Shown here: piece after piece, positions 52,146-55,487 of the stretch
How the letters are laid out: each line of letters starts with the position of its first letter
How positions within the stretch are numbered: position 1 is the stretch's first letter
NCBI GenBank assembly: GCA_963755715.1
Contig: CAVWLW010000001.1
Span: 32,001 to 96,000, forward strand
DNA: 64,000 nucleotides
Source: an uncultured delta proteobacterium
Lineage (GTDB): Bacteria > Desulfobacterota > Binatia > UBA9968
Reading direction: 5' to 3'
Translations under genes and position numbers: made by a program
The notes under the pieces: model-generated
Databases searched by the model: none
Told to the model about the DNA's origin: nothing
The model's input: only the letters and a program-made list of their open reading frames with translations

Positions 52146-52164
52146 CCGCCTACATTTTGTTCAC

Positions 52165-52322
52165 AGCTCTGGGTTCCTAGGGAAGTCCGGTGTAAATCCG
52201 GCGCGGTCCCGCCACTGTGATGGCTACGAAAGCCGCAAGACAGCCACTGTCCTGAGTCAAGCGAAGGATGGGAAGGCGCGGCGAGTAGAAAAAAGCCTAA
52301 GTCAGGAAACCTGCCCAGAGTC
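52165..52322 (+). ncRNA. Cobalamin riboswitch 1 (upstream of tonB)
   Basis: AGGGAAgtccGGTGtAAATCCggcgCggtCCCgCcACTGT ... GCCACTG ... GGGAAG ... AGTCAGGAAACCTGCC. Confidence 0.95.
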
Positions 52323-52401
52323 GTTTTACCGGCCTCTCCGGAGAAGAGAGAAAGGTGTTTCGTTCTTTCCCTGCTCACCTTGAGGCCACGCATGGGCGAA
52401 C

Positions 52402-53178
52402 ATGAGATTGGCCTCTTTCTTTTTGATATCCGTGACTCTGCACGCGCTTGCGCTGGTCTATCCGGTTTCGTTTGCAGACCCGAAACAGGCCCAGCTTATT
52501 CGGGTGATGATTCTGCCGGTAGAGCACGAGACGTCCGGCGCCAACGGGCAAGACGGCGGTAGCGGAAGTCGTGCTTCACGCGCCGGCGCCAAAGCGCCCG
52601 GACACGCAGCGCGCGCCCTTCAAAGTCTCGTTCAATCAAACCAGACCGGCAGCCCAGAGCCGCGACCTCAATTTGGCGAAGCGCCAATAGATTTAAACGA
52701 AAACAACAGCGCTGCGCTCGTTTTTGTACCGTCAAAATCTGGCGAGGCCGACGGCGCGGCAAAAATTCCTTTAGCGGGCGATGACGGCAATGGCTCCGAC
52801 AAGGGTGCGATCGGAAACGGCGCGAATGGATTCGGATCATCTGGCAGCGGTGCGGGACTCGGCAACGGTCAAGGTTCATCGGGGAATGGCGCCGTTTTGA
52901 TTCAAGCGCGCTATAGCGAAACGCCCAAACCGGTTTACCCGGAGAGCGCTCGAAGCGAGGGCCGTGAAGGGCAGGTAATTCTGCGCGTTCTGGTTGACGA
53001 TCAAGGTCGATCGAAACATGTGGAGATCAACCGCAGCTCCGGCAGCGAAGCGTTGGACCGAGCCGCCGCTGAAGCGATCAAGCGGTGGCGATTTATCCCG
53101 GCGCGCTACGGTGACAAGGCCGTTGAAAGTTGGATTCGCATTCCCATCGAGTTTCGCCTCGCCGACGCGAAACCTTAG
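52402..53178 (+). CDS. tonB: Energy transducer TonB
   Basis: TM segment SVTLHAL, Gly-rich linker, PVYPESAR..EGQVILRVLV, SSG..LDRAA..WRFIPA. Confidence 0.9.
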   Translation: MRLASFFLISVTLHALALVYPVSFADPKQAQLIRVMILPVEHETSGANGQDGGSGSRASRAGAKAPGHAARALQSLVQSNQTGSPEPRPQFGEAPIDLNENNSAALVFVPSKSGEADGAAKIPLAGDDGNGSDKGAIGNGANGFGSSGSGAGLGNGQGSSGNGAVLIQARYSETPKPVYPESARSEGREGQVILRVLVDDQGRSKHVEINRSSGSEALDRAAAEAIKRWRFIPARYGDKAVESWIRIPIEFRLADAKP

Positions 53179-53219
53179 GAAATTTTTTAGGAGGTCATCA
53201 AGGCAAGTATTATTAACCG

Positions 53220-53532
53220 CAGACGGATGTAAGGGAATGGGGTGACTCCGAAAAGGATAAAGGCGGAAGGCAAAAGGATAAATGAAAGTTTTATCCTTTA
53301 GCCCTTATCCTTTAGCCTTTCCGAGAATTCCCCTGCTGCCCCGCAACTGTAGGAGCCACGAAAGCCGCACGAATAGCCACTGTCCTCGGCCCGAGCGACG
53401 GATGGGAAGGCGCGGCGAGTAGGTAAAATCGTGATCGTCACTCGTGATCGTGTTCATTGGAAGGAATTTCCGAGCACGAGACACAGGCGAGAACACGAAC
53501 TAGACGCTCGAGCCAGGAGACCTGTCCATCTG
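53220..53532 (+). ncRNA. Cobalamin riboswitch 2 (upstream of btuB) containing two ~80-bp hairpin insertions
   Basis: AAGGGAAtgggGGTGA[insert]AATTCCCCtgCTGCCCCGCAACTGT ... GCCACTG ... GGGAAG ... [insert] ... AGCCAGGAGACCTGTCC; a hairpin covering the SD follows. Confidence 0.88.
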
Positions 53533-53571
53533 TTTTCAACATTCCCCTTTCGCGGGAAAAGGAGAGGTTTT

Positions 53572-55487
53572 ATGGTTTTCTTCTGTGTTCTTCTATTTTT
53601 TATTTTGTTTCCAAGCTTTTCCCAGGGCGCGGACCCTGCGCCAGAACAAAGTCTTCCTCCGGTCGTTGTGACGGCCACACGCACGGAAGTTCCCCTCAAT
53701 CAGCTCACAACATCTCTGACCGTAATCACGAGTGAGGAAATTCGCGAGCGGCAAGCGGAACTCGTATCGGAGGTCCTGCGCGACGTCGCTGGCGTCAATG
53801 TCGTTCAAACAGGCTCCATGGGAACGGCCACTTCCGTTTTCATTCGTGGCTCCGACATCAAATCAGGTGTTGGTTTTGGTCGACGGTGTTGAAATAAACA
53901 GCACGACCACGGGTGCCTACGACTTCGCTAACCTGACCACCGAAAGCGTCGAGCGCATCGAAGTCCTCCGCGGCGCCGGTGGAACTCTTTACGGCTCGCA
54001 AGCCATCGGCGGCGTGATCAATATTATTACCAAAAGAGGACAGGGGCCGTTGGATGTGGGGGTATCCGCGCAGGGCGGCAACGGTTGGACCAACCGTCAA
54101 GTCGCAACCCTGAGAGGCGGCCTGGGTAAACTCGGCTATGCGTTCAGCGTAGGCCATATCGGGAGTCAAGGCTTCAGGAGCGTCAACGATGATTATCGCA
54201 ACCTCTCGACGTCGGCGCGGCTGGACTATCAACTGACAGAGAATGCCAGCCTCAAGGGTATCTTCCACTATATCAACAGCGATGCGGGGCTGTTCAATAA
54301 CAACAACTTCGCCTCCACACCCGACCCCAACGCTCGCCAGGCCACGACTCAATACGTGGGCAAACTCGAGTGGGAACAAAAAATCCTGGCGAACTGGGAT
54401 TACCGAATTTCCGGATCCATCTTCAAAGAGCATGACAAGTTTAGCGACGATGTCGATTCCTGCGTCTCTTTCGGCTTCCCCTGCGATTCGCGCACCCGCG
54501 ATTTCTTTCGCCCGCAAATCGTTAGCGGGGAATTTCAAACCAACTACCGCCTTGAGGATTGGAGCACTGCGACTTTTGGCGTCCAATACAATCGGAGGTC
54601 GGCCAGCACCAACGGTGGAATCGACGAAACCATCGGCAATGTCGGCTACTACCTGCAACAACAATTTCAGTTTCTCGATCGCAGCCTGATCATGATCCCG
54701 GGAATCCGATCTGGACGATAATCAACAGTTCGGCACCGCATGGACGCCATCGTTTTCCGCGGCCTATTTATTCAAGGAGATCGGCACCAAGTTGAAGGGT
54801 GGCTATGCCAGCGGTTTTAGAGCGCCGTCGTTGAACGAGCTGTTTTTCCCTGCGGGCTTCGGTTGCCCGGCCTTCGGTAATCCGAACCTAGGTCCGGAGA
54901 AAAGTTGGGAAATAAACTTCGGCGTCGAGCAGAGCCTCCTCGCCGAGCGACTTACAATGGGTGCGAACTATTTTCATCGCGAGGTGAAGGACCTCATCGA
55001 AGGGAGACCCATTCCCGGAGACCCATTTGGTTGTTTCCGCGCCGAGAATGTGGGGCGCGCACGTTTCGACGGCGTCGAGTTGACTTTGGGAATAAAGCTC
55101 TTCGAGGGCCTCACCTTGAACGCCAATTACACCTATCTCGACTGGGATACTGCGGATGGGACACTGCCGCGCCGGCCGCGCAATAGTGGGAACGTGATCC
55201 TGAATTATCTGCAGGATGCTTTGAACGTCAACCTCATCGTCAATATCGTCGGCCTCCGCGATGATTTTCGTGCCGCCTCGCCGTTTGGCAACACGGTCAC
55301 GGCCGGTTATGGGATTGTTGATCTGGCTTCATCCTATAGGCTTCCCTGGCGAAATTCCCTCGTAAAGGAAATAAGCCTGATTGGCAGGATCCAAAACCTG
55401 TTTAATAAAAGGTACGATCAAGCGGACGGGTTCCGCGCCCCGCCGTTAAACTTTTTGCTCGGCTTTCGCACTACTTTCGGGAGCTAG
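53572..55487 (+). CDS. btuB: TonB-dependent cobalamin receptor (frameshifts near 53855 and 54710)
   Basis: VVVTATRT, VLVLVDGV, VERIEVLRG..LYGSQAIGGVINIIT, GFRAPSLNEL, NPNLGPEKS; riboswitch context. Confidence 0.9.

Follow-up and report, generated by a model that had tools for sequence, protein, structure and literature searches.

Heptamer-repeat hairpins within a cobalamin riboswitch upstream of btuB in an uncultured soil bacterium

The window (i.e., the whole 64-kb stretch of DNA that was analyzed, from the genome referred to below as G000) contains two cobalamin riboswitches, RS1 and RS2, each located upstream of a TonB-related gene. The features of this locus are as follows:

52154..52332, + strand: cobalamin riboswitch 1 (RS1), matched by RF00174 at 98.3 bits over 179 nt (cmscan), without inserts, 5′ of the tonB-like gene
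52402..53178, + strand: gene for a TonB-like protein of 258 aa (Pfam TonB_C, E 1e-23)
53208..53543, + strand: aptamer of cobalamin riboswitch 2 (RS2), matched by RF00174 at 62.6 bits over 336 nt, with two hairpin inserts
53246..53325, + strand: insert 1 (site A), an AAGGNNN/NNNCCTT heptamer-repeat hairpin in the P4 T-loop, left as an unaligned block by cmscan
53425..53500, + strand: insert 2 (site C), a hairpin of TCGTGNN/NNCACGA repeats located in the P6 extension (3′ strand)
53544..53574, + strand: expression platform, with CCCCTTT (anti-SD), a CGCGGGA loop, and AAAGGAG (SD), then the ATG at 53572
53572..55487, + strand: gene for a btuB-like TonB-dependent receptor (Pfam Plug and TonB_dep_Rec_b-barrel), in three frames in this assembly

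The RS1 and RS2 matches each span the full RF00174 model (positions 1–189; cmscan). RS2 is located 5′ of a B12-related gene, which is the setting characteristic of cobalamin riboswitches. The TonB-dependent receptor gene (Plug and barrel) is followed by genes for a GATase_3 (CobQ-type) protein, CbiZ, CobD/CbiB, and a class I/II aminotransferase, and a CobS-like gene lies upstream of the RS2 locus (all by Pfam). The match of RS2 has an E-value of 4e-13, and its score of 62.6 bits exceeds the gathering score of 31.5 and is 36 bits lower than that of RS1. A preliminary description of this DNA, made from the sequence alone, held that RS2 shares its core with RS1 and keeps all conserved boxes while being about twice as long. 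These points were confirmed. The common core includes 29 nt with 96.6% identity and has 81% identity over about 89 nt, the aptamers measure 336 and 179 nt (cmscan), and the full-length match of RS2 includes every conserved box. The B12 box (GCCACTG) occupies 53376–53382, the L5 region GCTGCCCCGC is found at approximately 53335–53344, and GGGAAGGCGC and GCCAGGAGACC are both present; the B12 box and the junction nucleotides are also kept in 20 related leaders. Among the best 150 of the 350 RF00174 matches found in 150 genomes of the phylum, lengths range from 163 to 214 nt, and inserted riboswitch forms are expected among the 200 lower-scoring matches.

Insert 1 consists of 80 nt that separate GGUGA from AAUUCC in the P4 loop, at model positions 58/59 of the cmscan alignment. 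That an 80-nt hairpin splits this loop, as first described, is supported by the unaligned cmscan block, by the predicted fold (−30.2 kcal/mol, z −4.4, closed by CUC/GAG, with 0 of 200 shuffles as stable), and by the TRF arrays of its two arms (period 7, with 3.9 and 4.4 copies). The second unaligned block of RS2 is found at model positions 151/152. For insert 2, comparison with relatives in which the site is empty set the bounds at 53425–53500, so that the TCGTGA/CACGAG hairpin initially placed at about 53425–53505 is real and has a predicted fold, but is 76 nt long rather than about 80 bp. Its TCGTG words are spaced 6–7 nt apart, and its fold (−27.7 kcal/mol, z −2.1) is matched in stability by 6 of 200 shuffles. 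The minimum-energy fold of the whole 336-nt aptamer keeps both hairpins.

In the expression platform, the CCCGC of L5 is complementary to the GCGGG in the loop of the CCCCTTT/AAAGGAG hairpin, a match of sequence complementarity only. Pairing of the platform together with a kissing loop to L5 would hide the SD, and RS2 is probably an adenosylcobalamin-type OFF switch on btuB translation, acting presumably through ligand binding. The platform lies within 95 nt of the aptamer end in 21 of the 22 leaders displayed, including five sister-family leaders. In the remaining leader (L027), the platform is shifted downstream by an extra hairpin, CCTCTCCCT...AGGGAGAGG, between P1 and the SD-sequestering hairpin, and this represents a fourth insertion site.

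A search of 40 relatives, a scan of genome contigs, and a later fetch yielded 20 distinct RS2-type leaders, namely those of G000, 16 of 24 same-genus genomes (including G005, an unpublished genome), and L025–L027; RS2 was not found in the remaining eight same-genus genomes. L023 is masked at the RS2 site, and L024 has no leader. For comparison, five leaders from two sister families were included, and all leaders were cut at conserved anchors. Three sites were compared:

Site A, the P4 loop: 7 nt in the five sister-family leaders (baseline); occupied in all 20 leaders
Site B, the terminal loop behind the B12 box: 12–20 nt in the sister families (baseline); filled in 9 of 20 leaders (66–101 nt)
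Site C, the junction of the P6 extension: 9 nt in one sister family and a native hairpin of 29–31 nt in the four leaders of the other; filled in 2 of 20 leaders (86 nt)

None of the five sister-family leaders has a heptamer insert. The fillings of site A vary in length (67–145 nt), sequence, and repeat family. AAGGNNN-type heptamer hairpins are found in 13 leaders, and six leaders have a GC-rich outer stem around an ATTTTGG/CCAAAAT inner hairpin. G011 has a plain GC-rich hairpin with about 40 nt inserted and without heptamers. All three forms have in common the base ACU(C)...GAGAAU. The G011 hairpin looks like the outer stem alone, and this resemblance would fit nesting into a pre-existing loop. 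Site B, which is empty in G000, is filled by TTTGGAT/ATCCAAA-type hairpins. Site C is filled in G000 and G022 only, with inserts that are homologous including the loop; its length is 86 nt in G000 compared with 9–10 nt in 18 of the 20 leaders. The G022 leader has all three sites filled, and its aptamer reaches 388 nt. In comparison, RS1-type elements are 169–200 nt long and have no insert in any of 18 related loci. The preliminary description had spoken of an invaded riboswitch. Insert 1 is not a recent invasion, because site A is filled in all 20 leaders, whereas insert 2 is lineage-restricted (2 of 20). The long arm at site A in all 20 leaders partly refutes that description, but the three forms it takes differ among close relatives.

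Despite this variation, the core is conserved, and the Rfam scores of the leaders drop stepwise with the number of inserts, the unfilled state being represented by natural orthologs that lack inserts: 84.5–89.6 bits with no insert (n = 5), 64.4–78.0 bits with one (n = 7), 62.5–66.6 bits with two (n = 4), and 46.5 bits with three (n = 1), leaving out G012 and G005, for which the cmscan matches began inside an insert. For 16 of the 25 riboswitch inserts tested, the fold is better than those of all 200 shuffles; the weakest are the site B insert of G015 (33/200) and the site A insert of G002 (17/200). Covariation gives thin support, with double changes at four of the 13 pairs predicted for site A and at none of the 13 for site B; the underlying MAFFT alignments are poor because of register shifts. 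One clear compensatory change at site A, from A-U to G-C, distinguishes G000 and G019.

The view that these hairpins are repeat elements was borne out, as both types recur at other loci of the genus. Insert 1 has 72–77% identity over about 70 nt to other places in G000 (contigs C31, C33, C27, and C43), and similar places also occur in five other genomes of the genus; no match was found in the 16 sister-family genomes searched. Hairpins of the insert 2 type were fetched from four other loci of G022 and one of G014, and a complete one is present in G000 (C38:103802-103862); several single arms occur elsewhere. Genome-wide, TRF detected 973 period-7 arrays, of which 452 are at least 18 nt after merging (calls of periods 14 and 21 were merged into the period-7 set). 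An inverted partner within 160 nt, with a score of at least 12, accompanies 117 of these 452 arrays, compared with 0 of 452 random segments. At a score of 14, inverted partners were found for 89/452 arrays of period 7, and for 0/62, 2/285, 48/296, 21/400, 2/266, 0/206, and 1/338 arrays of periods 5, 6, 8, 9, 10, 11, and 12, respectively. The period-7 arrays collapse to 77 hairpin elements (median, 86 nt). Discounting a GC-rich false call leaves about 76 in a genome of 7.4 Mb. The inverted-pair hairpins span 50–180 nt and belong to many unit families (AGGCAAT, AAAGGAT, ATTTTGG, AATGGAG, CGAGGAT, GAGTSCT, GTTCAAR, TCGTGNN, and others). Among the 77 elements, 17 lie wholly within a stop-free frame of at least 150 codons, compared with 87% of genome bases.

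Several further observations concern these repeats. Larger elements of 129–177 nt, with arms AAATCCGAAA / TTTCGGATTT and alignable interiors, are present in G000 at C14:74641, C24:662, C27:271906, C35:11114, C46:1886 and 2491, C59:132084, C70:33157, and C73:146432; their appearance is that of MITE-like elements related to the shorter heptamer hairpins. Heptamer hairpins and arrays also form clusters of a few kb in G000 (C34:114075-124198, C43:44173-46886, and C5:229-7820), and composite arrays exist in which two unit types abut (e.g., AAGGATA then TCGTGAT at C50:124141-124197). A search with Rfam for other structured-RNA hosts, in 74 regions around 75 other elements, returned only three tRNAs. 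The corresponding hairpin, of the GAGYGCT type (G000 C76:113035-113098; L113 301-364), lies in the spacer of a three-tRNA cluster; since it is situated between two tRNA genes, it is probably inside a tRNA precursor transcript. The RNase P RNA of G000 has no insert (369 nt, compared with a model of 367 positions). Close relatives of G000 have been deposited as Thermodesulfobacteriota, delta proteobacterium, Binatia, and Blastocatellia, and more distant btuB matches as Nitrospira; for this lineage, an uncultured soil group, such labels are uncertain.

The evolution of the sites was examined on quick maximum-likelihood trees of 22 rows, based on the first 1250 nt of btuB and on 970 nt upstream; both trees lack bootstraps, carry long-branch warnings, and leave out the three later-fetched leaders. 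On the btuB and upstream trees, respectively, the state of site A changed 7 and 6 times, that of site B 6 and 6 times, and that of site C 2 and 2 times. L026, the nearest btuB relative of G000 (93% identity), differs from it at all three sites, and the repeat families at site A in these sister genomes are unrelated. Moreover, similarity to G000 shifts along the locus: G022 has 72% identity before site B and 82% from site B onward, and G019 has 92% identity in the 5′ leader and 69% in btuB. The G022 riboswitch (L007) is a mosaic, with a 5′ half like that of the G003/G004 group and a 3′ half, including insert 2, like that of G000/G019. This mosaic points to recombination inside the aptamer, and as judged from these sequences the patchiness of site states is probably due in part to recombination. 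The changes on the trees and the recombination together indicate that site states have been exchanged, gained, and lost. In addition, the btuB receptors behind the homologous leaders split very deeply into two clades, separated by a branch of 1.57 changes per site, suggesting either gene replacement behind a conserved riboswitch or rapid divergence.

The reading favored here, with a probability of roughly 60%, is that RS2 is a functional switch that carries self-folding passenger hairpins at permissive sites. The hairpins would be copies or local offshoots of a genus-wide palindromic family, in which each arm of an element is a short imperfect tandem array of 6–7-nt units. They would persist only where the aptamer tolerates an outward-pointing helix: the GNR turn of the P4 T-loop (A), the terminal loop behind the B12 box (B), and the junction of the P6 extension (C). 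That the inserts occupy such helix-tolerant positions, as had been proposed, is supported by the native hairpin at site C in one sister family and by the P4 T-loop helix described in the relevant part of PMC2258182. Self-pairing of an insert during transcription would bring the flanking conserved nucleotides back together, and excision would for this reason not be needed. The elements may have arrived by insertion into existing hairpin loops, by recombination between lineages, or by both. Three points count against regarding the hairpins as passengers. First, site A is filled in every leader, so that the extension could equally be useful or necessary. Second, hairpins at three to four sites in a single aptamer of about 190 nt would not be expected from random landing of about 76 elements in 7.4 Mb. 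Third, the sister riboswitch 1 kb upstream is free of hairpins in 18 loci.

How the hairpins arose is a separate question. They may not be mobile at all, having grown in place from long-lived, unconstrained hairpins by slippage of about 7-nt units and arm-to-arm copying; mutational bias or gene conversion would then explain why unit types are shared. This origin, which seems unlikely although it deserves serious weight, is compatible with any functional reading because it concerns only where the hairpins came from. It would account for the differences in unit number and order among orthologous copies and for the plain hairpin at site A in G011. It is also consistent with the comparison of filled and empty sites, which revealed no target-site duplication and no fixed element ends at sites A, B, and C; insertion as such is therefore not demonstrated, and a MITE identity of the elements fails on the same grounds. 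The filling of site B replaces the whole terminal stem-loop. A link to RAYT transposases and REPINs was ruled out, as the surroundings of all nine Y1_Tnp genes are free of period-7 arrays to a distance of 1.5 kb and of hairpin elements to 3 kb. Furthermore, PMC4679880 reports that, in many bacteria, slippage repeats with heptanucleotide units are the most frequent of the long repeats. However, growth in place does not readily explain why a few unit families recur at many loci with 72–77% identity over about 70 nt, why unrelated families occupy site A in sister genomes with 93% identity in btuB, or why two distant leaders have copies of insert 2 whose homology extends to the loop.

The inserts may instead be functional parts of the switch, a rather improbable reading in which the P4 extension slows or guides co-transcriptional folding, binds a protein, or retunes the response. 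For the last of these, which the preliminary description had also considered, the AAGGA (SD-like) and CCTT (anti-SD-like) arms of insert 1 might compete with the AAAGGAG/CCCCTTT pairing of the platform, whose SD and anti-SD words they resemble. The occupancy of site A (20/20, albeit in changing form), the hairpin potential kept in most copies, and the compensatory change (A-U to G-C) that distinguishes G000 from G019 are all in line with a function. Nevertheless, at site A neither the sequence, nor the length (67–145 nt), nor the repeat family is conserved, and sites B and C vary between presence and absence among close relatives. No insert at all is present in the sister-family switches, although they have the core and platform in common with RS2, and the same hairpin types are found at about 75 other, unrelated places. 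A broader proposal is that the btuB leader is a hot spot in which undescribed heptamer palindromes were repeatedly nested in hairpin loops, swapped, and lost, that the "variable insertions" of riboswitches are born from such repeats, and that the P4-loop extension was co-opted through folding kinetics or SD/anti-SD competition. As a whole, this proposal is speculative and quite doubtful.

Contigs from other sequencing runs bear on both the assembly and the fate of the inserts. An assembly artefact was ruled out for the inserts because independent contigs from two DNA runs span both of them: record 2 of run X1 covers 53143–53535, including both inserts, with two differences and no gap, and records 27 and 28 of run X3, from another study, cover the remainder of RS2. 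Among the RNA-library contigs, X16 record 22 runs through insert 1 (53180–53388), and X15 record 11 runs through insert 2 (53302–53528) with zero differences. Record 20 of RNA library X16 (word depth 31) is confined to the RS1 aptamer (52191–52361), and the adjoining gene has little coverage, as might be expected if the leader RNA were stable or terminated, although contig depth cannot be used for ranking. In rRNA, intervening sequences form an extra helix in a loop of the structured RNA and are excised by RNase III. By this analogy, and as first suggested for RS2, its long imperfect duplexes in loops of a structured RNA might be cut out by RNase III or a similar enzyme, leaving the switch as non-covalently held pieces. 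No excision joint was seen at the inserts in contigs of the four runs (two DNA and two RNA libraries), and the RNA-library contigs continue uninterrupted through both inserts; this evidence is weak, given that rare forms are lost from contigs, that RNA ends are not visible in them, and that RNA libraries can hold DNA. In addition, cleavage of the P4 loop would separate the mRNA from the 5′ strand of P1–P4. Excision is on these grounds very improbable, and RS2 resembles the rRNA case in having an extra helix in an RNA loop and differs from it in that the contigs give no sign of removal.

The btuB gene in this assembly is frameshifted twice, by single extra bases near 53855 and 54710. Neither extra base appears in any contig that covers these places in the DNA runs X1 and X3, which come from different studies, and the base near 54710 is also absent from the covering contigs of the RNA-library runs X15 and X16. 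Relatives have neither extra base; those assembled from short reads have intact btuB ORFs of 653–680 aa, and two long-read-style MAGs among the relatives have btuB fragmented at other places. Because the relatives and the contigs of the other runs are without the extra bases, the frameshifts are read as assembly errors or private mutations. A third single extra base relative to the contigs of other samples is found at 53533, in a T-run of the P1 3′ strand. The three positions (53855, 54710, and 53533) suggest indel errors of a long-read assembly, and such errors call for caution regarding other "pseudogenes" in this genome. The simple decay of riboswitch and btuB, with the inserts as junk in a dead leader, had been named at the outset as a competing explanation and might be read from the two frameshifts and from the 36 bits by which RS2 falls below RS1, but it is very unlikely and was rejected for the locus, given that the frameshift bases are absent from the covering contigs of other runs and from relatives, the short-read relatives have intact ORFs, and the aptamer core and platform are conserved over 20 insert-bearing leaders.

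A close parallel for dispersed repeats inside a structured RNA may come from cyanobacteria. In work attributed to Vioque in 1997, STRR heptanucleotide repeats are said to lie within the gene for RNase P RNA in heterocyst-forming species, where they reportedly occupy helix P12 and are dispensable. In both cases, a peripheral helix of a functional, structured RNA is extended by genome-wide tandem heptamers; in the cyanobacterial case the host is a ribozyme in another phylum with other units, and in RS2 it is a riboswitch. Dispersed tandem heptamers, as in STRR, are present here as the 452 merged period-7 arrays. The STRR unit sequences and the heterocystous host, by which STRR are reportedly defined, are not found here, as the units include AAAGGAT, AGGCAAT, ATTTTGG, etc., and the relatives are deposited as soil MAGs from other phyla.

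Intergenic heptanucleotide direct repeats of patchy distribution have been described in Beggiatoaceae, cyanobacteria, and Bacteroidetes, and their origin is given as unknown in the sections of PMC4679880 devoted to them. The G000 arrays share with these repeats the short 7-nt-unit arrays in mostly intergenic positions. However, those sections report no predicted structure and list 169 direct sets compared with one indirect set, whereas the G000 arrays are inverted pairs that form predicted hairpins. REP/REPIN sequences are short palindromic extragenic repeats mobilized by RAYT (Y1) transposases, according to the description in PMC3116915. The G000 elements are likewise short, palindromic, mostly extragenic, and dispersed; unlike REP/REPINs as described there, their arms are tandem arrays instead of one conserved palindrome, and no Y1 gene is nearby.

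Riboswitches are known to tolerate "variable insertions", i.e., stem-loops at specific sites that leave the core undisturbed (Barrick & Breaker 2007, PMC2258182). In the same account, the P4 T-loop of AdoCbl riboswitches is sometimes interrupted by a helix, and L4 appears as a T-loop in the solved structures discussed in PMC7367189. The RS2 stem-loops are like the insertions described there in being non-conserved, in occupying permissive sites that include the GNR turn of the P4 T-loop, and in leaving the core unaffected, although the "specific position" of that account was compared by its text and may not be exactly site A. They differ from the insertions in that account in being traceable to a dispersed repeat family and in having been swapped, gained, or lost within one genus. 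RS2-type leaders also go beyond those insertions in having up to three sites filled together, with aptamers of up to 388 nt. In the literature searched, which had subscription journals outside its scope, neither a report of dispersed repeats filling riboswitch insertion sites nor a description of heptamer-repeat hairpins (inverted array pairs) in this lineage was found. Permissive-site stem-loops in riboswitches are thus already published (PMC2258182), and the filling of such sites by dispersed repeats would be the new part.

Taken together, these findings tie the "variable insertions" of riboswitches to a concrete genomic source, namely dispersed heptamer-repeat palindromes, and document a repeat family made of inverted pairs of heptamer arrays. 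As covariance scores fall by tens of bits when inserts are present, inserted riboswitches may be under-annotated. The leaders amount to a natural insertion scan of a large aptamer, in which each of 20 switches has between one and three unrelated hairpins (about 40–140 nt) at a few shared positions with the core untouched. For engineering and structural work, these sites are a useful guide to the positions at which the cobalamin aptamer can accept an extension.
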